DNA of 64,000 nt from Vicinamibacteria bacterium (GCA_963697705.1 CAVOPA010000017.1:75126-139125), one strand, 5' to 3'. Shown: positions 40,732 to 49,074, counted from the stretch's first letter. A program made the numbers and translations. The notes: a model not told the origin generated them from the letters alone.

Positions 40732-41397
40732 CTACCCGTCCCACCATCTCGACAGATGCGACTGCGGCCGGCCTGGATAGTCGGCGTAGTGGCTCACGTC
40801 GTTGAACAGCATCAGCCGCGCGCGGACGGGATCCCTGAAGTCGACGATGTTCAGGCAGGCCGGCGCCTGGTCGAGGCGATCGCGATAGCCGCGGCCGTCG
40901 AAGCCGAGCAGGCTGCTCATCACGAGGCGAATGGTCGCCTTGTGCGACACGACGACTACATTCCTGCCCAGATGCGCTTCGACGATCCGCCGGATGACCG
41001 GCAGCGCGCGCGCCAGCACGTCCAGCCCGCACTCGCCGTGCTCGGGCGCGAAGGTGAACGGGTCTTCTTCCCAGCGCGCGTACTCGTCACCGAAGCGGCT
41101 TTCCACTTCGGCCCGGGTCAGGCCTTCCCACCGGCCGTGATCGATCTCACGCAGTCCGGGGTGCTCGAGCGGGGTGAGGCCGTGCGGGGCTGCGATCAGA
41201 GCGGCCGTGTCTCGCGTGCGCCGCAGCGGGCTGCAGTAGACCGCCGCCATGTCGTCGTCGCGCAGACGCTCGGCCAGCCGTGTCGCCTGCGCGCGGCCCT
41301 CGGCGGAGAGATCGACGTCGGTCGCCCCGGCGAACCGATCCTCGGAGGTCAGCACCGTGGCGCCGTGGCGCACGAGGAACACGCGGGTCGCGCTCAT
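40732..41397 (-). CDS. histidine phosphatase (phosphoglycerate mutase) family protein
   Basis: ATG 41397 gives MSATRVFLVRHGATV (RHG motif). Also SPLRRTRDTA, IDHGRWEG and VVVSHKATIR. Confidence 0.85.
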   Translation of the reverse strand: MSATRVFLVRHGATVLTSEDRFAGATDVDLSAEGRAQATRLAERLRDDDMAAVYCSPLRRTRDTAALIAAPHGLTPLEHPGLREIDHGRWEGLTRAEVESRFGDEYARWEEDPFTFAPEHGECGLDVLARALPVIRRIVEAHLGRNVVVVSHKATIRLVMSSLLGFDGRGYRDRLDQAPACLNIVDFRDPVRARLMLFNDVSHYADYPGRPQSHLSRWWDG

Positions 41398-43696
41398 CCC
41401 GTGCCGTGGTGACCGCCGGCGCCAGGCCAATGCGACGAAGGATCATGTCCCAGCGCTCGTCGCCGTGCAGCGGATCGAACGAAGGGTCGACCTTCAGAAA
41501 TGCGGCCTGCCCGGCCCGCTGGGCGGTGACCCGGTCAAGGTGCACGAAGGCCTGATCGATGTTGCCGGCCTGCGTCATCGCGACGGCGCTGGCGTACTCC
41601 GCGACACCGGCTGCCGCGGCCGTCTGGCGGAGCGCATCGGCGAACTGAACGCGCACGCGCCAATACCCGAGCCCCCCGTCGGCTTCGAGGCCGGCCTTCA
41701 TGGCCGTCACCGCGGCTTCCTGCACCGGCGCGCCGAAGAACCAGCTCGCGCGGCCGAACGATTCCGCGGCGCGCTCGAGCAATCCGAGCCGCTCGTAGAT
41801 CACGCCGAGAAACGAGAGCGCGTCCGGGAATCCGGGATCGAGCAGCGTGACCTCGCGCAGGGCATCCAGCGATTCCTGGTACCGCCGCGCAAAATAGAGC
41901 GTCCACGCCACCCCCATCTGCATCAGCAACGAGAGCGGGTCAAGCTCGCGGCCCCTGCGTGCCGCGGCAATCGCCTCGTCGTGACGGCCGAGCGCGGTGT
42001 GCAGCAGCCCGATGTACATGTGGGTGACGGGGCTGCGCGGCTCGAGCTCGAGGGCCTTGTTGAGGGCGTGTTCGGCGCCGATCCAGTCCCATGAGTGGAA
42101 CATGCGGCAGACGCCCATCGCCGCGTGCGCCTCTGCGAGGCCCGGGTCGAGATCGAGTGCGGCGTAGGCGGCGGCCGACGCGCGCGTCATGGCGACATCG
42201 GTGGCCAGGTGGCCGTAGTAGCCCATGACGCCGTAGGTCTCGGCGAGCCCGGCGTACGCCCGCGCGTATTTCGGGTCGATCTTGATGGCCGCCTCGAAGT
42301 GCCCGATCGCCTTGTGGAAGCCGTCCGCCCTCCACTTGCTCCACTCGTGGCGTCCGCGCAGGTACTCCTGGTAGGCATCACCGCTGCCGGTCGCGCGTTT
42401 GCGCAGGCGCCGCTTCTCCGGGGCGGTCAGACGGATGCGCAGGGCCTCCGAGATCTGCCACGCGATCTGCTCCTGCAGCGAGATGAGCTCCGACACGGGA
42501 TGGCGGTACTGATCGCCCCAGACCTGTGTCTCGGTCGTCACGTCCACGAGCTCGGCCTGGATATTGAGCAGCGAGCCCTGCTGCATCACCCGGCCCGTGA
42601 CGAGGGAGTCCACGTTCAAGGCGAGGCCGACGGAGCGAGGGTTGACGGCCATCCCCTTGTACGCGAACACCGTGCTCCTGGGAATCACGCGCAGCTTCGG
42701 CAGCTGCGAGAGGCTGTTGATGATGCTCTCGGTGATGCCGTCGGACAGGTAATCCGCCTCGGTCTCGCCGCCCGCGTTCACGAACGGGAGCACGGCGAGC
42801 GAGCGCATCCGGGCCCTTCGCCGCGCGACGGTGGGCGTCGTAGCCGACGAGTCCGTCAGCAGGGACCGCAGCGCCGCCGCGAGCTCGCGCGCGGACGAGA
42901 ACCGCTGGGCACGGTCTTTCTCGAGGCAGTGCGCCACCACGTCCGCGAGCCGCGGCGGGACCTGCAGTCCGAGCAGCAGCAGGTTGGGAGCGGGATCATT
43001 GAGCACCGCGGCCAGCGAATCGGCGGCCGTGGCACGTACAAAGGGCCGTTCGCCCGTGAGCATCTCGAGCGTCGTGCAGCCGAGCGCGAACAAGTCGGTC
43101 GCCGCATCCGCGGTTTCACCGCGGACCTGCTCCGGCGCCATGTAGCCGACCGTGCCGAGCACGCGGCCGGGCTCCGTCGCGACAAACGTGCTCGCCGCCG
43201 CAACAGCGGCCATGGCGTGCTCTGTGCGCGCCAGGCCGAAGTCGAGGATCTTGGGGTGCAGATCGCCGGTGATGAAGATGTTGTCCGGTTTCAGATCGCG
43301 GTGGACGATACCTTTTGCGTGCGCGGCCGCGAGACCGTCGGCCACGTGCGCCATCAGCTCGACCGCGTCGCGCCAGGGCAGTGGGCCGCGCGTCAGGCGG
43401 GTGCGCAGGTTCTCGCCTTCCAGCAACTCGACCACCGCGACCGGCTGGCCATCGACGAACGCGAGCTCGTGAATGGCCATGATGTTCGGGTGCGAAATCG
43501 CGGCGATCGCTCGTGCCTCGTGCTCGAAGCGCTTCCGCATCTCCACATCGTGGGCGAGATGGTCGGGCAGCACCTTGAGCGCGACGTCGCGGCCCAGCCG
43601 CGAGTCGCGGGCGCGATAGACCTCACCCATGCCACCGGCGCCGATGGGCGCGAGCACTTCGAACTGCGCGAGACGTGTACCTGGGGTCAGACTCAA
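41147..43696 (-). CDS. Ser/Thr protein kinase with TolB-N/CsgG-like module and TPR repeats; the last roughly 83 codons of the formal ORF overlap the next gene and are probably an artefact
   Basis: TTG start 43696 follows SD AGGAG. Hanks motifs GAGGMGEVYRA, VALK, HRDLKPDNI, DFGLA and GTVGYMAPE. Then LAVLPFVNAGGETEADYLSDGITESIINSLS, followed by TPRs. The conserved sequence ends near ...WDMILRRIGLAP (about 41410). Confidence 0.85.
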   Translation of the reverse strand: MSLTPGTRLAQFEVLAPIGAGGMGEVYRARDSRLGRDVALKVLPDHLAHDVEMRKRFEHEARAIAAISHPNIMAIHELAFVDGQPVAVVELLEGENLRTRLTRGPLPWRDAVELMAHVADGLAAAHAKGIVHRDLKPDNIFITGDLHPKILDFGLARTEHAMAAVAAASTFVATEPGRVLGTVGYMAPEQVRGETADAATDLFALGCTTLEMLTGERPFVRATAADSLAAVLNDPAPNLLLLGLQVPPRLADVVAHCLEKDRAQRFSSARELAAALRSLLTDSSATTPTVARRRARMRSLAVLPFVNAGGETEADYLSDGITESIINSLSQLPKLRVIPRSTVFAYKGMAVNPRSVGLALNVDSLVTGRVMQQGSLLNIQAELVDVTTETQVWGDQYRHPVSELISLQEQIAWQISEALRIRLTAPEKRRLRKRATGSGDAYQEYLRGRHEWSKWRADGFHKAIGHFEAAIKIDPKYARAYAGLAETYGVMGYYGHLATDVAMTRASAAAYAALDLDPGLAEAHAAMGVCRMFHSWDWIGAEHALNKALELEPRSPVTHMYIGLLHTALGRHDEAIAAARRGRELDPLSLLMQMGVAWTLYFARRYQESLDALREVTLLDPGFPDALSFLGVIYERLGLLERAAESFGRASWFFGAPVQEAAVTAMKAGLEADGGLGYWRVRVQFADALRQTAAAAGVAEYASAVAMTQAGNIDQAFVHLDRVTAQRAGQAAFLKVDPSFDPLHGDERWDMILRRIGLAPAVTTARDERDPRVPRAPRRHGADLRGSVRRGDRRRSLRRGPRAGDTAGRASARRRHGGGLLQPAAAHARHGRSDRSPARPHPARAPRTA

Positions 43697-43978: not shown

Positions 43979-44566
43979 GTGACGACCACCATCGACCCAC
44001 AGAACACCGGGGCGCAGCCCCGCACGTCCGAGGGGGACGGCGCCAGCCTGGAAAAGGTCCGCGACCTGCTCTTCGGCGTCCACATGCGCGACAACGACCG
44101 CAAGTTCGCGCGTCTCGAGGAACGGCTTGCGAAGGACACGAGCGATCTCCGCGAAGACGTGAGGAAGCGGCTCGCCGCGATCGAGTCGCTCATCCGGCAG
44201 GAGGTCGAATCGCTGAGCGAGCGGCTGAAGACCGAGCAGGACGAGCGCTCGACTGCGGCCAAGGACCTCGCGCGCGAGCTGAACGAGTCGGCCAGGACGT
44301 TCGAGCGGCGGGCGAGTCAACTGGACGATCAGTTGGCGCGCGGACTGCGGGATCTTCGACAGCAGCTGCACGAGCAGCACCAGGGCCTGTCGGACGAGCT
44401 GCGCCTGCTGGCCGACGACTTCGGCGCCCGTCTCTTGCGCGAGTCGCAGGAGCTGCGCGGCGACAAGGCCGACCGCTCGGCGCTGGCGGCGCTCTTCACC
44501 GAGATGGCCATGCGCCTGAACGGCGAGTTCAGGCTGCCTGGCACCGAGGACGGCCCGCGTGCGTGA
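43979..44566 (+). CDS. coiled-coil protein (195 aa), first gene of the GTPase operon
   Basis: GTG 43979 follows SD GAGGGAGG. The protein is almost entirely heptad-rich helix (KVRDLLFGVHMRDNDRKFARLEERLAKDTSDLREDVRKRLAAIESLIRQEVESLSERLKTEQDE...). The stop overlaps the next start. Confidence 0.65.
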   Translation: MTTTIDPQNTGAQPRTSEGDGASLEKVRDLLFGVHMRDNDRKFARLEERLAKDTSDLREDVRKRLAAIESLIRQEVESLSERLKTEQDERSTAAKDLARELNESARTFERRASQLDDQLARGLRDLRQQLHEQHQGLSDELRLLADDFGARLLRESQELRGDKADRSALAALFTEMAMRLNGEFRLPGTEDGPRA

Positions 44567-46322
44567 AGCCCCCGCTGTCCCCGCCGCCACACCGAGCGGG
44601 GACGCGGAGCCGGTGACCGAGTTCGCCGAGCTGCGGTCGCTCATCATCGGCCCGGAACAGCGTGAGCTGCGCGCGCTCGAAGCGCGGCTGGACGATCGCG
44701 GCCGCGTGGCGCGTGACGTCAGCGAAGTGCTGCCGGAGGCCGTTCTCCTGCGCAAGCACGACCCGCACCTGACGCGTGCGCTCGCGCCGACGATCGAAGA
44801 AGCCATCACCACCTCGGTTCGCCAGAACCCGCAGCCGCTGGCCGACGCGCTGTTCCCGGTCATCGGGCCGGCGATCCGCAAGGCCATTGCCGCCAGCCTC
44901 AGCGGCATGCTCGAGTCCCTCAACCGCACCCTCGAGCACAGCCTGTCGTGGCGGGCCCTCCAGTGGCGCCTCACGGCGCTCAGAACGGGGAAGTCGTTCG
45001 CCGAGGTCGTGCTGCTCAACACGCTGGTCTACCGCGTGGAGCAGGTGCTGCTCATCGATCGCCGGACCGGACTGCTCCTGCAGCACGTGACGGACGGCTC
45101 CGCGCCGCCGCAGGACGCGGACATGGTCTCCGGCATGCTCACGGCCATCCGTGACTTCGCCCACGATTCCTTCCGCGTGGCGGAACACGAAGCGCTCGAG
45201 ACGCTGCAGGTGGGGGACGTCACGGTCTGGATCGAGCAGGGCCCGTACGCGATTCTCGCGGCCGTGATTCGAGGCACCGCCCCGCACGAACTGCGCACGG
45301 CGCTTCAGGAGGCGCTCGAGTACGTCCACGCGTACCACGGCGACGCGCTTCGCGAGTACAGCGGCGACGCGGCGCCCTTCCAGGCTGTACGTCCAGCCAT
45401 GGAGGCGTTGCTGCAAGCGCAGTATCGCCGCACCGAGAAGCCGGTCTCGCCGCTGATCTGGGTTGGCATCCTCATCGTCGTGCTGGTCGCAGGGATCTGG
45501 CTGGCGTTCGCGCTGCAGGCGCGGGCGCGATGGCAGGGATACATCGATGCGCTCCGGGCGGAGCCCGGGATCGTCGTGGTCTCAACCGAGCGACGTGGCG
45601 GCCAACGCATCGTCACCGGGCTGCGCGACCCGCTGGCGCGCGATCCGAGGTCACTCGTCGCCGCACATCAGATCGACCCAGAAAGCGTGACGGGCAGCTG
45701 GCGATTCTACCAGGCGCTCGATCCGGAGCTGGTGCTGCGGCGGGCCCGGCAGATCCTCCGGCCGCCGCCGGGCCTGACGTTACGGCTGGCCAATGGAGTT
45801 CTGATTGCGGAGGGCGCAGCCCCAGCCAACTGGATCATCGAGAGCACCCGGATCGCGCCCGCGATTGGCGGCGTGCTGAGCTATGATCCGGCCGGCGCGG
45901 TGAACGCGGCGATCGCCGACCTCGCAGGCCAGCTCGAGACCCAGCCCCTGCTCTTCGTCCGCGGGTCGGACGCGCTGGCGCCTGGAAGCGCGGACGTGCT
46001 GCAGTCGCACCTCACCCGCGTGCGTGCGCTCGACGAGCTCGCCGCTGCGACAGGACGCCGCGTCGCGCTCGAGATCACCGGGCACGCCGACAGCGATGGG
46101 CCGTCGGAGGCGAACGACCCGCTCAGCCTGCGGCGCGCCGAGCGCGTGCGCGCCGCGTGCGAGGGGGAGCGGCTCACGTCGACCACCATTCTTACCCGAA
46201 GCGTCGGCAGCCGGGAGCCGCTCGGAGAGAGCGTCGTCGAAGCTGACAAGCAGCGCAACCGCCGGGTGTCGTTTCGCGTGCGGCCGGCCGCCGGCGCGCC
46301 CAGCAAGGTGACGCCGCGATGA
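44559..46322 (+). CDS. bitopic membrane protein: cytosolic Roadblock/LC7-like region - TM helix - periplasmic OmpA/MotB-type peptidoglycan-binding domain
   Basis: 587 aa. Residues about 155-262: VYRVEQVLLIDRRTGLLLQHV...DADMVSGMLTAIRDFAHDSF...VGDVTVWIEQGPYAILAAVIRG. TM helix PLIWVGILIVVLVAGIWLAFAL (aa 298-319). The C-terminus ITGHADSDGPSEANDPLSLRRAERV...NRRVSFRV is an OmpA_C-like signature. Confidence 0.8.
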   Translation: MREAPAVPAATPSGDAEPVTEFAELRSLIIGPEQRELRALEARLDDRGRVARDVSEVLPEAVLLRKHDPHLTRALAPTIEEAITTSVRQNPQPLADALFPVIGPAIRKAIAASLSGMLESLNRTLEHSLSWRALQWRLTALRTGKSFAEVVLLNTLVYRVEQVLLIDRRTGLLLQHVTDGSAPPQDADMVSGMLTAIRDFAHDSFRVAEHEALETLQVGDVTVWIEQGPYAILAAVIRGTAPHELRTALQEALEYVHAYHGDALREYSGDAAPFQAVRPAMEALLQAQYRRTEKPVSPLIWVGILIVVLVAGIWLAFALQARARWQGYIDALRAEPGIVVVSTERRGGQRIVTGLRDPLARDPRSLVAAHQIDPESVTGSWRFYQALDPELVLRRARQILRPPPGLTLRLANGVLIAEGAAPANWIIESTRIAPAIGGVLSYDPAGAVNAAIADLAGQLETQPLLFVRGSDALAPGSADVLQSHLTRVRALDELAAATGRRVALEITGHADSDGPSEANDPLSLRRAERVRAACEGERLTSTTILTRSVGSREPLGESVVEADKQRNRRVSFRVRPAAGAPSKVTPR

Positions 46323-46816
46323 TCCAGAAGAAGATCTGCATGCTCGGGGCGACCGGGGTCGGCAAGACGAGCCTCGTGTCCCGGTTTGTCAGCAGCCTGT
46401 TCTCCGACAAGTACCTGACGAGCGTTGGCGTCAAGGTGGACAAAAAGACGATCAGTTTCGGAGGCGAGGAGGTCACGCTGGTGCTCTGGGACATCTACGG
46501 CGAGGACACGTTCCAAAGCGTTCGCTCGTCGTACCTCCGGGGCGCGGCCGGCTACCTGCTGGTTGCGGACGGGACACGGCAGCTCACGCTCGACACCGCG
46601 CGCTCGCTGCAGAAGACGGCCGCAAGCGTCGCTGGCCGCGTGCCGTTCGTGCTCGCGCTCAACAAGGCAGACCTCATTGCCGACTGGCAGGTCGACGACA
46701 AGGCGCTCTGGAAGATAGCCGACGAGGGCTGGCCGATCGTGCGCACCAGTGCCCTGTCGGGCGCGGGCGTCGAGGAAGCGTTTCTGGCGCTCACTCGTGC
46801 GATGGTCGGGACCTGA
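46319..46816 (+). CDS. Ras/Rab-like small GTPase (165 aa)
   Basis: G1 GATGVGKT, switch I YLTSVGV, G3 WDIYGED, G4 NKAD, G5 SALSG. The ATG overlaps the upstream stop (ATGA). Confidence 0.85.
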   Translation: MIQKKICMLGATGVGKTSLVSRFVSSLFSDKYLTSVGVKVDKKTISFGGEEVTLVLWDIYGEDTFQSVRSSYLRGAAGYLLVADGTRQLTLDTARSLQKTAASVAGRVPFVLALNKADLIADWQVDDKALWKIADEGWPIVRTSALSGAGVEEAFLALTRAMVGT

Positions 46817-46838
46817 GACGGATGGGGGGACATGACAC

Positions 46839-47438
46839 GTGTCGAACGCAGTGCTCGCCGATATCTGCCTGGCCCTCGATTTCGTCGTGCTCGAACGCCT
46901 CGAGGGCGGATTCGTACGTGTCGGCGATCACCCGCTGCCGCCGTGGTTCGTCCGGGTCTTCATCCGGGCGCGGAACGAAGGTTCAGAGGTGGTCCTCAGC
47001 GACGTGTTTCCCGTGCTCGACTCGTTTCTCGTCGAAGCCGACCTGTTCTGGGACAGGGTCGGTGATGGCCGGCTCGCAAGCGAACCGTTCATCGTCACCG
47101 ATTCGCTCGGCGACGACCTGGCGGTGGTGGCCACGGCCGTGGGACGCAACCTCCGGCGCTACCTCCTGATGCAGCCCGACGCCTCGTTTCCTGAACGGCG
47201 GCGAGTCCTGCAGCTCGCCCGCGAACAGGCGCTCGTCCACGAGCAGGTGGTGCGGCAGATACAGGAGCTCCGGCCGCCGGTTGCCACCCTCGCGCGCGTG
47301 ACCGCCGGCCTGGCAGCCAGCGCGACGAGCGACGCGGCACGCGCGCAGATCGAAACGATAACGAGCCAGGTGGGCAGCCTGCAGCGGATCCTGAGCGAGC
47401 TGCCGCAGCGATCCCGGGGCGGATCGCCGACGCGCTGA
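46839..47438 (+). CDS. hypothetical protein (199 aa), last gene of the GTPase operon
   Basis: GTG 46839 lies 22 nt after the GTPase stop, behind G-rich SD GGATGGGGGGA. It has an N-terminal roughly 120-aa globular region and a C-terminal helical/coiled segment (RRRVLQLAREQALVHEQVVRQIQEL). No motif was recognised. Confidence 0.55.
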   Translation: MSNAVLADICLALDFVVLERLEGGFVRVGDHPLPPWFVRVFIRARNEGSEVVLSDVFPVLDSFLVEADLFWDRVGDGRLASEPFIVTDSLGDDLAVVATAVGRNLRRYLLMQPDASFPERRRVLQLAREQALVHEQVVRQIQELRPPVATLARVTAGLAASATSDAARAQIETITSQVGSLQRILSELPQRSRGGSPTR

Positions 47439-47550
47439 ACGGCGGGCCCCGCCACACGCAGCTGCCAGCCCGGCGCGCTTGCATCCGCTGCAACCCTGTC
47501 GGCCGTGGCGGCGAGAGGTCCTTCGACATCATCGCCAGCGCGTGTGCGCC

Positions 47551-47559
47551 TGTTATCAT
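47551..47559 (+). promoter_or_regulatory. extended -10-like element TGTTATCAT, 9 nt upstream of the IMPDH-family ATG (possible leaderless mRNA)
   Basis: gccTGTTATCATcaacgccccATG; there is no SD between the box and ATG 47569. Confidence 0.3.
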
Positions 47560-47568
47560 CAACGCCCC

Positions 47569-49074
47569 ATGACACTCCGCGAGCTCGTTCACGGCTGTAC
47601 GTTCGACGACATCCTGCTGGCGCCGCAATTCAGCCTGGTCGAGAGCCGCGACCCCGCCGCGATTGACCTGTGCTCCCGCCTGACCCGCCGGCTGACGATC
47701 AACCGCCCGGTGGTATCGGCCAACATGGATACGGTCACCCGCGCGCCGATGGCAATCGTCATGGCGGAGGAAGGTGGCATTGGGATCATCGATCGCGGCT
47801 TTCGGCCCGGCGACATCGGACCGCAGGTGCGCGAAGTCCAGGTGGTCAAGCGCTCGCAGCACGGCGTGATCCGCGATCCGTACACGATTCAGCCCGATGC
47901 CACCGTGGCGGAAGCCGCCGTTGCGATGCTGCGATCCCGCGTCGGCACGCTGGTGGTCGTCGACGGCTCGGGCAAGCTCGTCGGGCTGCTCACCGAGCGC
48001 GACATCCGGTTCCTGAGCGACAGCACGGCGCGCGTGGCGGAGCGGATGACGCCTCGCGATCAGCTGGTACTGCACGAGGGTGAGCTGTCGTTGCCAGCCG
48101 CCGAGCGTCTGATGATCGAGCGGAAGGTCAAGAAGCTGCCGCTCGTCGCCGGCGATGGCACCCTGCTCGGGCTCATCACGTCGAGAGACTTGCTGCGGCA
48201 GCGGCGCCTGCCGTTTGCCTCGCGGGACGATCTCGGCCGCCTGCGGGTGGGCGCGGCAATCGGCGCACGAGGTGACTTCATCGAGCGCGCGGCCGAGCTG
48301 CTGCGTGCCGGTGCCGACCTGCTGGTGATCGACATCGCCCATGGTCACTCGCTGGTCATGGAACGCGCGCTCGCGGCCGTGCGCGCGCGGTTCCCGGACG
48401 CAGAGGTGATTGCAGGGAACGTGGCGACTGCCGAGGGGGCGCGCTTTCTCGCGGATCGCGGCGCCAGTGCGGTGAAGGTCGGCATCGGCCCTGGCGGTGG
48501 TTGCACCACGCGCATCACCACCAGCTTCGGCGTGCCGCAGCTGCAGGCGCTCGTGGACTGCCGCGCCGCTCTGGGCGGCGAACTGCCGATCATTGCGGAC
48601 GGCGGCATCAAGCGACATGGCAGCCTCTGTGAGGCGTTGCTCATGGGCGGCGACACCGTGATGCTCGGCAGCGCGTTCGCCGGCACCCAGGAGTCGCCGG
48701 GCGAGATCGTGCAGAAGTCCGTCCTGCTGCCCGAATCCCAGAAGCCGGTGCAAGTGCCCTTCAAGGTGCTGCGCGGCATGGCATCGATCCAGGCGATCAA
48801 GGATCGACTCGACGTCGAGGATGCCGACCTCATCGACCTGCAGGCGCTCGGCGCCGAGGGGATGGAGGTCAGCGTGCCCCTTCGCGGGTCGGCACGCAGC
48901 GTGTTCCAGGACATGATGCGGCACCTCTGCTCGTCGATCAGTTACGGCGGCGCAGATAGCCTGGCCGGACTCCGTGCGCGTTTCGATGCTGACCCGATGC
49001 GGTACGTCATCAAGCTGTCGCCGGCAGCCCGCCGCGAGTCATACGAACGGGGAGGGCTAAAGGCCAAGGGCTAA
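47569..49074 (+). CDS. IMP dehydrogenase/GMP reductase family protein with CBS pair
   Basis: ATG 47569 inside ORF 47479..49074. FDDILLAPQ, VSANMDTVT, two CBS motifs, catalytic loop GIGPGGGCTTR, IIADGGI, GSAFAG. The stop codon lies inside the GGGCTAA repeat. Confidence 0.9.
   Translation: MTLRELVHGCTFDDILLAPQFSLVESRDPAAIDLCSRLTRRLTINRPVVSANMDTVTRAPMAIVMAEEGGIGIIDRGFRPGDIGPQVREVQVVKRSQHGVIRDPYTIQPDATVAEAAVAMLRSRVGTLVVVDGSGKLVGLLTERDIRFLSDSTARVAERMTPRDQLVLHEGELSLPAAERLMIERKVKKLPLVAGDGTLLGLITSRDLLRQRRLPFASRDDLGRLRVGAAIGARGDFIERAAELLRAGADLLVIDIAHGHSLVMERALAAVRARFPDAEVIAGNVATAEGARFLADRGASAVKVGIGPGGGCTTRITTSFGVPQLQALVDCRAALGGELPIIADGGIKRHGSLCEALLMGGDTVMLGSAFAGTQESPGEIVQKSVLLPESQKPVQVPFKVLRGMASIQAIKDRLDVEDADLIDLQALGAEGMEVSVPLRGSARSVFQDMMRHLCSSISYGGADSLAGLRARFDADPMRYVIKLSPAARRESYERGGLKAKG

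Follow-up and report, generated by a model that had tools for sequence, protein, structure and literature searches.

Does the gene cluster at positions 43,979 to 47,438 of a DNA stretch from a Vicinamibacteria bacterium (GCA_963697705.1, CAVOPA010000017.1:75126-139125) encode a new type of bacterial GTPase switch, or does it belong to a system that has already been named, and how might its products act together? The stretch was analyzed at its full length of 64,000 nucleotides and is called the window below. An earlier note, made from the sequence alone, had described the cluster as a four-gene operon built around a Ras/Rab-like GTPase and a membrane protein anchored to the peptidoglycan, and had seen no match to the characterised bacterial small-GTPase modules.

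A Four-Gene Operon and Its Assignment to the Group 1 Rup Family

All four open reading frames (ORFs) are located on the same strand, and their positions, overlaps and spacing were found exactly as placed before. The signals of coupling were also seen in the sequence, i.e., an overlap of 8 nt between genes 1 and 2 (GTGCGTGA), an ATGA overlap between genes 2 and 3, and a spacer of only 22 nt between the stop codon of gene 3 and the GTG start codon of gene 4, which contains a GGGGGG run. The four ORFs are real genes and not chance ORFs, and they form a tightly coupled operon around a Rab-like GTPase. As expected, genes 2 and 3 encode a bitopic, OmpA-anchored protein and a Ras/Rab-like GTPase, based on the Pfam families OmpA and Ras and on a single transmembrane segment. 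The Pfam search gave no significant match for the products of genes 1 and 4, and searches of NCBIfam and PADLOC with all four products revealed OmpA-type matches and coiled-coil noise, and nothing else. Neither a paralogue of the system nor an MglB-like gene was found in the window.

The operon can be compared with a computational survey of the prokaryotic Ras-superfamily GTPases, which comprise the MglA and the Rup families (Wuichet and Søgaard-Andersen 2014, Genome Biol Evol 7:57; PMC4316618). In the neighbourhood of Group 1 Rup a gene for a coiled coil, DUFY, is followed by a gene for a DUFX:TM:OmpA protein and by the gene for a Rup GTPase that lacks the Gln of G3 (PMC4316618). The fourth gene "typically" encodes a diguanylate cyclase/phosphodiesterase fusion or a histidine kinase, and its N-terminal region contains an invariant Gln, which was proposed by the authors to act in trans (PMC4316618). 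Their Table S2 lists 27 loci of the type "DUFY>DUFX:OmpA>Rup>", in which the GTPase has 158-181 aa, and none of them is from Acidobacteria; the DUFX proteins of Bacteroidetes and Chloroflexi are without the OmpA domain, and no member of the Rup family had been characterised as of 2014 (PMC4316618).

The operon shares with these loci the order DUFY>DUFX:OmpA>Rup, a GTPase of about 165 aa with eukaryote-like motifs G1-G5 and without the G3 Gln, a helical cytoplasmic protein, a protein composed of a cytoplasmic domain, a transmembrane helix and an OmpA domain, and a fourth gene with an invariant N-terminal Gln. Because the text and Table S2 match gene by gene, the operon is, as judged from these sequence comparisons, a representative of the Group 1 Rup system from an acidobacterium (Vicinamibacteria-type). 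The novelty that had been assumed for the gene set is thus largely lost, as its neighbourhood is that of an already named system, defined by computation (PMC4316618).

Conservation of the Gene Order

Full-length homologues of gene 2 number in the thousands, and their names include Vicinamibacterales/Vicinamibacteria of the phylum Acidobacteriota. When the query was restricted to the cytoplasmic half (aa 1-310), 4661 clusters (50% identity) were found with E<=1e-3, and 1695 at E<=1e-30. An alignment of the cytoplasmic domain was used as query for a genome scan, which yielded at least 597 confirmed relatives; the synteny sample consists of 83 related loci and includes the best 80 of these relatives. 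The best 80 loci stem from Acidobacteriota, Cyanobacteria, Nitrospirota, Verrucomicrobiota, Planctomycetota, Deltaproteobacteria and others.

The earlier note had proposed to look for synteny of the homologues in other genomes, and it was indeed found. Gene 1 is located directly upstream of gene 2 in 80 of the 83 loci, and the GTPase gene directly downstream in 70, while 71 of the 83 have more than 1.5 kb of DNA on this side. In two homologue contexts with different flanking genes the four genes have the same order and the same 8-nt overlap, and the overlap of genes 1 and 2 is present in the database gene calls for three loci (L001-L003). The four-gene architecture occurs in Cyanobacteria and Nitrospirota, both of which are phyla of Table S2 (PMC4316618).

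The Rab-Like GTPase

The Pfam family Ras covers aa 5-162 of gene 3 (E=3.5e-29), and the nearest solved structures are those of Rab4A and Rab1B (E~1e-23). As had been claimed, the motifs G1-G5 are all present (G1 GATGVGKTS, G2 T34/S35, G3 DIYG, G4 NKAD, G5 SAL), and the residue after DxxG is a Glu, not the catalytic Gln. The Rab motif WDTAGQE aligns with WDIYGED, which places Glu62 (codon 46502-46504) at the position of the catalytic Gln. Among 79 orthologues this position is occupied by Glu in 40 cases, by Gln in 15, by Ala in 11 and by Asp in 5. The position of Ras Gly12 (also position 12 in gene 3) deviates too: it is Thr in gene 3, and in the same 79 orthologues Phe (55), Ser (9), Tyr (8) or Thr (4) were found. 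G1, G2, G4 and G5 are otherwise intact. In Ras-family enzymes, loss of the catalytic Gln and substitution of Gly12 both go along with poor intrinsic hydrolysis. Poor intrinsic GTP hydrolysis is predicted also for this GTPase, because the equivalent of Gln61 is absent and the Gly12 position is occupied by Thr or Phe.

The G3 motif has the canonical form D58xxG61, so the MglA-type feature, a Thr in place of this Asp, is absent. Together with the lack of DUF742 and HATPase_c domains in the four products, this agrees with the previous view that the operon is neither an MglA/MglB system nor a conservon.

Two further observations concern the GTPases. G5 is SAL (aa 146) in gene 3 versus SAK in 75 of the 79 orthologues, i.e., a lineage-specific change. 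In three loci a second, divergently transcribed Rup-like GTPase paralogue is encoded directly upstream of gene 1 (L012:1067-1567(-), L037:5672-6160(-) and L082:2838-3452(-)).

The Product of Gene 4 and Its N-Terminal Domain

Gene 4 had been described as having no recognisable motif. This did not hold, as a PAS-like core, invariant residues and a DHp-like hairpin were detected. In the AlphaFold2 (AF2) model (predicted local distance difference test score, pLDDT, of 73) an alpha/beta core (aa 1-113) is followed by a long hairpin (helices 118-161 and 165-187). In a Foldseek search the model matched LOV histidine kinases in their PAS-linker-DHp part (8a3u, E=6e-6; also 4gcz); no Pfam PAS model matched the core. 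In an alignment of 23 diverse sequences of the N-terminal domain (called g4N below) the only invariant residues are W36, W71, Q125 and L132, and R128 is at least 90% conserved. Q125 (codon 47211-47213) is part of the motif LQxAR[ED] and, by its place in the sequence, fits the "invariant glutamine" that was described for the N-terminal region of the fourth gene (PMC4316618).

The hairpin has Q142 at the position of the H-box His (QELRPP versus HELRTP). Of 27 family members, 18 gave sub-threshold matches to HisKA (the best with E=2.5e-4), and the alignments begin just past the His position. The short-form homologue P0314 has IHELRQP where gene 4 has IQELRPP; it keeps the canonical His, which supports the view that the hairpin descends from a true HisKA domain. 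Pfam did not find HATPase_c, GGDEF, EAL or any other catalytic domain in gene 4. According to the model and the alignments, gene 4 encodes a Rup-partner PAS-like domain with a His-less DHp hairpin and without an ATPase domain.

In other phyla, much longer proteins are encoded after the GTPase, and their N-termini are homologous to residues 1-145 of gene 4. The Pfam domains fused to g4N in these proteins are those of hybrid histidine kinases (PAS-HisKA-HATPase-REC-Hpt), of a GAF-HisKA_3 kinase, of a sigma54 AAA+ activator with HTH_8, and of an HD_5 (HD-GYP-type) protein. Short forms are also common: 31 of the 56 g4N proteins encoded near gene 2 homologues have fewer than 240 aa, and the short ones are mostly from Acidobacteriota. 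The stand-alone proteins have about 147 aa or about 200 aa, and their existence argues that g4N has an activity of its own.

A reciprocal metagenome scan, for which only the gene 4 domains of long-form proteins from other phyla served as seeds, yielded 80 loci. Among the 32 loci that extend for 3 kb or more on each flank, the GTPase was present in 31, gene 2 also in 28, and all three in 25; a single g4N-seeded locus (L157) was without the GTPase. Because 31 of the 32 loci carry the GTPase, g4N appears to be a dedicated partner of Rup. On four contigs (L088, L133, L146 and L147) the GTPase is paired with g4N while genes 1 and 2 are both absent from the surrounding 6 kb or so. Judged by these pairs, the GTPase seems to be linked more tightly to g4N than to the membrane protein.

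Other arrangements of g4N genes were also seen. A minimal gene 4 of about 147-164 aa, comprising the domain and the Gln helix, is located upstream of gene 1 in several loci, resulting in the order g4N-g1-g2-g3 (L043:5701-6177, L057:5864-6304, L060:5815-6309 and L063:5855-6301; also L119, L123, L134, L143 and L150). On the metagenome contigs L091, L092 and L113 tandem g4N genes follow one GTPase, which suggests that one switch can have several effectors.

At about 17 Pyrinomonadaceae-type loci the gene 3' of the GTPase is of another type. The example L045:9468-10346(+) encodes a protein of 292 aa, which has a PAS domain at its C-terminal end and an N-terminal half of unknown type, and similar loci include L026, L030-L033, L035, L038, L040-L042, L046, L050, L052 and L053. 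A divergent g4N was sought in these loci by hidden Markov model search and by hhalign, both with negative results. The 292-aa protein may be an alternative partner.

The Membrane Protein Encoded by Gene 2

The AF2 model of gene 2 was built with 57 homologues and has a mean pLDDT of 74. The family's most conserved motif (FPVIGPAIRKAI) is located in its N-terminus, which is helical and of low confidence. For aa 147-265 the model has the order alpha-beta-beta-alpha-beta-beta-beta-alpha (pLDDT 50-88), and Foldseek matched it to MglB (3t12_C, E=4.2e-5, 24% identity, target-normalised template-modelling (TM) score 0.41, root-mean-square deviation (rmsd) 10.7 A). No Pfam model matched the N-terminal domain in 20 diverse members, and a comparison of the gene 2 profile with PDB sequences revealed no Roadblock relationship. 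The previous reading of aa 140-270 as Roadblock/LC7/MglB-like thus gains support at the level of the fold, from the topology of the model and the Foldseek match, and none at the level of the sequence, from Pfam or hhalign. Based on the model, the cytoplasmic domain plausibly has a Roadblock/MglB-like fold. Invariant arginines in the diverse alignment of gene 2 are R43, R107 and R238.

Kyte-Doolittle windows of 19 residues exceed 1.6 only at aa ~299-320 (peak 2.83), and in the AF2 model a helix spans aa 298-334. In the periplasmic part that follows, Foldseek aligned 266 columns to Rv0899, which has a BON and an OmpA-like domain, and also matched the periplasmic domains of YscD. The claim that the periplasmic half ends in an OmpA-type domain was verified by the Pfam match to PF00691 (aa 466-568, E=4.9e-10). 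The best Foldseek matches of this domain are Pal, OmpA, TagL and YfiB, and the residues of the peptidoglycan-binding motif (G508, D511, D513, G514, N519, L522 and R526) are invariant in the 57 homologues.

In homologues of 650-1000 aa the copy number of the alpha/beta (BON-like) module (aa ~390-450 of gene 2) varies, and therefore the distance between the membrane and the OmpA domain differs among lineages. Longer homologues with a repeated module are P0127, P0134, P0142, P0159 and P0204 (800-1000 aa).

The Helical Protein Encoded by Gene 1

The product of gene 1 had been regarded as nearly all coiled coil. It is indeed helical throughout, and Pro is absent from aa 15-186; the heptad periodicity was not found. 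The hydrophobic periodicity is 3.6-3.67, which was matched by 1 of 2000 shuffles, and there is no power at 3.5. Self-similarity was detected at lags of 11 and 22 residues, and 72 orthologues have the same pattern. Sub-threshold Pfam matches to Apolipoprotein (E=3e-7) and Perilipin were also obtained. The periodicity and these matches indicate, at the level of the sequence, an amphipathic helix with 11-residue repeats (hendecad, 11/3) and not a heptad coiled coil. The protein could bind to membrane surfaces or form a non-canonical bundle.

Features and Neighbouring Genes

Table 1. Positions of the genes, overlaps, predicted domains and neighbouring genes, counted from the first nucleotide of the window.
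Feature	Position	Strand	Description and basis
Gene 1 (DUFY)	43979..44566	+	195-aa cytoplasmic all-helical protein; ORF
Gene 2 (DUFX:OmpA)	44559..46322	+	587-aa bitopic membrane protein; GTG start
Gene 3 (Rup)	46319..46816	+	165-aa Rab-like GTPase; ATG start
Gene 4	46839..47438	+	199 aa, Rup-partner N-terminal domain and degenerate DHp hairpin (predicted); GTG start
Overlap of genes 1 and 2	44559..44566	+	8-nt start/stop overlap, GTGCGTGA; sequence
Overlap of genes 2 and 3	46319..46322	+	start/stop overlap, ATGA; sequence
Roadblock/MglB-like domain, predicted	44997..45353	+	gene 2 aa 147-265; AF2 and Foldseek
Transmembrane helix	45453..45518	+	gene 2 aa ~299-320; Kyte-Doolittle and AF2
Two periplasmic alpha/beta modules	45570..45941	+	gene 2 aa 338-461, BON-like by fold; AF2
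OmpA-like peptidoglycan-binding domain	45948..46286	+	gene 2 aa 464-576; Pfam PF00691, Foldseek
PAS-like domain (g4N) and conserved helix	46839..47258	+	gene 4 aa 1-140; alignments
Helical hairpin like HisKA/DHp	47190..47399	+	gene 4 aa 118-187; AF2, sub-threshold HisKA
Ser/Thr kinase gene	41147-43696	-	TolB_N-like segment and TPR repeats; divergent from gene 1
IMP dehydrogenase gene	47479-49074	+	IMPDH and CBS domains; ~40 nt downstream of gene 4

The two neighbouring genes were considered as further components of the system. The earlier note had regarded the divergent Ser/Thr kinase gene as a possible upstream input. This was not supported and the kinase was rejected as a partner, as a kinase was found within 7 kb in only 9 of the 83 loci, and for the same reason its adjacency is probably incidental. 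The same divergent position was seen only in the closest relative (L004, 87% identical). IMP dehydrogenase catalyzes the committed step towards GTP, and the position of its gene beside a GTPase operon is suggestive. It was rejected as part of the unit, as it is not found downstream in L001-L003. Its true start is probably internal, because the Pfam domain begins at aa 39 of the longest ORF.

A Proposed Mechanism and Its Rivals

From the composition and conservation of the operon, the domain folds and the reciprocal linkage we infer a receptor-GTPase-effector/GAP mechanism (GAP, GTPase-activating protein). A Group 1 Rup signalling system that acts in this way is the best explanation of the whole locus, and we regard it as somewhat probable. 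Gene 2 would reside in the inner membrane and contact the peptidoglycan with its BON-like and OmpA domains in the periplasm, and, probably together with the translationally coupled gene 1 product, it would form a membrane platform anchored to the wall. The Roadblock-like domain of gene 2 would bind, load or position the soluble Rab-like GTPase, i.e., have a receptor-like role or that of an exchange factor for guanine nucleotides (GEF). Rup alone would hydrolyze GTP inefficiently. Rup-GTP would then bind to the PAS-like N-terminal domain of gene 4, and Q125, possibly together with R128 one helical turn away, would complete the active site in trans and lead to hydrolysis. Gene 4 would thus be effector and GAP in one, so that the effector doubles as the off-switch. 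In other lineages g4N would drive the fused histidine kinase, sigma54 activator or HD-GYP-type domain. Because gene 4 of this operon has only the His-less DHp hairpin, its output may run via protein-protein contact, as in a pseudo-kinase or adaptor, or it may be an off-switch only.

Several results weigh against this mechanism. The Roadblock assignment is based on a single AF2 model of moderate confidence, given its pLDDT of 50-88, TM score of 0.41 and rmsd of 10.7 A. The Pfam family PF03259 (Roadblock/LC7) was not found in gene 2 at E<=1 or in 20 diverse relatives at E<=10, and hhalign of gene 2 against 27 MglB sequences gave a probability of 0.4%; this last negative is weak because the MglB set was narrow (>=76% identity to the query). 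A Gln after DxxG is present in 15 of the 79 orthologous GTPases, in about 27 of the 83 loci no g4N could be detected within 7 kb, and the Pyrinomonadaceae-type loci have a different fourth gene. The GEF role of gene 2 and the GAP role of gene 4 are proposed by analogy. A literature search with the family name, the citing papers and twelve loci of Table S2, in which subscription journals were thinly covered, revealed no later experimental work on Group 1 Rup.

The main rival exchanges the roles of two of the proteins. The Roadblock-like domain of gene 2 would be the GAP and reorient the active site, g4N would be an effector or sensor of Rup-GTP with Gln and Arg as part of the interface, and nucleotide exchange would be spontaneous or be performed by gene 1. 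The characterised bacterial Roadblock partners are called GAPs (MglB; CvnB/MfpD as "likely"), the Foldseek match of gene 2 is the MglB of an MglA-MglB transition-state complex, and the three invariant arginines of gene 2, R43, R107 and R238, also fit such a role. However, the GTPase on which MglB acts possesses a catalytic Gln itself (PMC4316618), while Rup is without that residue, and the stand-alone g4N proteins of 147 aa need a function beyond that of a sensor without an output. We consider this exchange of roles as rather unlikely. Less probable still, and distinctly unlikely, is a structural or positional device of the envelope, in which the GTPase would regulate a tether, a landmark or a polarity factor and gene 1 would be a scaffold at the membrane surface. 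The OmpA anchor and the BON-like modules, the Apolipoprotein-like 11-mer amphipathic repeats of gene 1 and the lack of an enzymatic output in the local gene 4 would all be in line with it, and MglA-type GTPases control polarity and motility machines. It is at odds with the fusion of the partner domain to histidine kinase, REC-Hpt, sigma54 activator and HD-GYP-type domains elsewhere, and with the DUFX proteins of Bacteroidetes and Chloroflexi (PMC4316618): because these are without OmpA, wall anchoring is not universal.

The last explanation that was considered is an anti-phage or conflict system with a small GTPase switch, similar to Zorya. It was prompted by weak PADLOC/NCBIfam matches, which link gene 1 to ZorA tails and to LmuB, and the C-terminus of gene 2 to ZorB. 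These reach about 17-24 bits versus cut-offs of 100-750 bits and are confined to the helical-repeat or OmpA parts. A MotA/ZorA channel domain, a nuclease or another effector was not found, gene 1 has no transmembrane segment, and the operon is a stable chromosomal one, which is kept across phyla and has housekeeping neighbours. A role in defence is highly improbable, and an identity with the Zorya (ZorAB) system is effectively refuted, as the matches are coiled-coil and OmpA noise only.

Taken one step further, the proposed receptor-GTPase-effector/GAP mechanism can be generalised to a widespread receptor-G protein-effector pathway. In it, a wall-anchored membrane protein would switch the Rab-like GTPase through a divergent Roadblock domain, and a portable PAS-like G-protein receiver would recognise the GTP form and then turn it off with a Gln/Arg pair in trans. 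This receiver would have been plugged into kinases, sigma54 activators or HD-GYP-type domains, or left stand-alone as a pseudo-kinase, as here. This generalisation is tentative, and doubtful at present.

Significance

No other bacterial small GTPases are as close to eukaryotic Ras/Rab as those of the Rup branch, and gene 2 belongs to a very large family, with 4661 clusters and at least 597 relatives on genome contigs. A defined four-part system would provide a second model of bacterial G-protein signalling beside MglA and the conservons. Candidate key residues lie in gene 4 (Q125, R128), in the GTPase (E62, T12) and in gene 2 (R107, R238). Should DUFX indeed have the Roadblock fold, the pairing of Roadblock and GTPase would be common to both prokaryotic families, and this would bear on the origin of eukaryotic regulators such as Ragulator and the longin/Roadblock GEFs. 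The locus is of moderate value as a way into a signalling system that is still unexplored, and of low value as a new discovery.

Comparison with Known Systems

MglA/MglB of Myxococcus xanthus and Thermus thermophilus (PDB 3t12) also combine a small GTPase with a partner of the Roadblock fold, which is predicted in the case of the operon. In contrast to the soluble MglB of about 16 kDa, the partner is here a domain within a membrane protein of 587 aa, and gene 2 has no PF03259 sequence match. In addition, gene 3 is Rab-like with an Asp in DxxG, whereas MglA has a Thr in place of this G3 Asp (PMC3000849).

The conservon/AGPS systems (CvnA-D; MfpA-E) are similar in that four components, a GTPase, a Roadblock-type protein, a histidine-kinase-like protein and a small protein, form one set, and the analogy of Group 1 Rup with the conservon was already proposed by the authors of 2014 (PMC4316618). 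The differences are that the conservon GTPase belongs to MglA Group 2, that DUF742/CvnC was not found in the four products, and that the membrane component is the Roadblock-like protein here and the kinase-like one in the conservon.

The TBC-domain RabGAPs and Rap1GAP supply a catalytic Gln or Asn in trans. In both cases a GTPase without a usable Gln meets its partner, which here has an invariant Gln and an Arg one helical turn away. However, g4N is PAS-like and has no kinship with these GAPs in sequence or fold, and the catalytic role of its Gln is putative.

With the PAS-DHp sensor kinases YF1 (4gcz) and SB2F1 (8a3u), gene 4 shares the PAS-like core, the connecting helix and the DHp-type hairpin; it differs from them by the lack of a CA (ATPase) domain, of the phospho-acceptor His and of a Pfam PAS match. 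With its degenerate H-box QELRPP it can be compared with DivL, an example of a His-less pseudo-kinase. For gene 2, Rv0899/ArfA has likewise one or more alpha/beta modules followed by an OmpA-like domain, but gene 2 has no Pfam BON match and its periplasmic part is joined to a large conserved cytoplasmic domain.

The closest likeness is that to Group 1 Rup, described at the outset. Acidobacteriota are not among the 27 entries of 2014, and gene 4 is without the signal-output enzyme that is "typically" present and keeps a His-less DHp hairpin instead. The locus is an additional, slightly reduced example of this catalogued system, which differs by its phylum and by its reduced fourth gene, and the Roadblock-like, PAS-like and hendecad assignments are the annotations that are new here.

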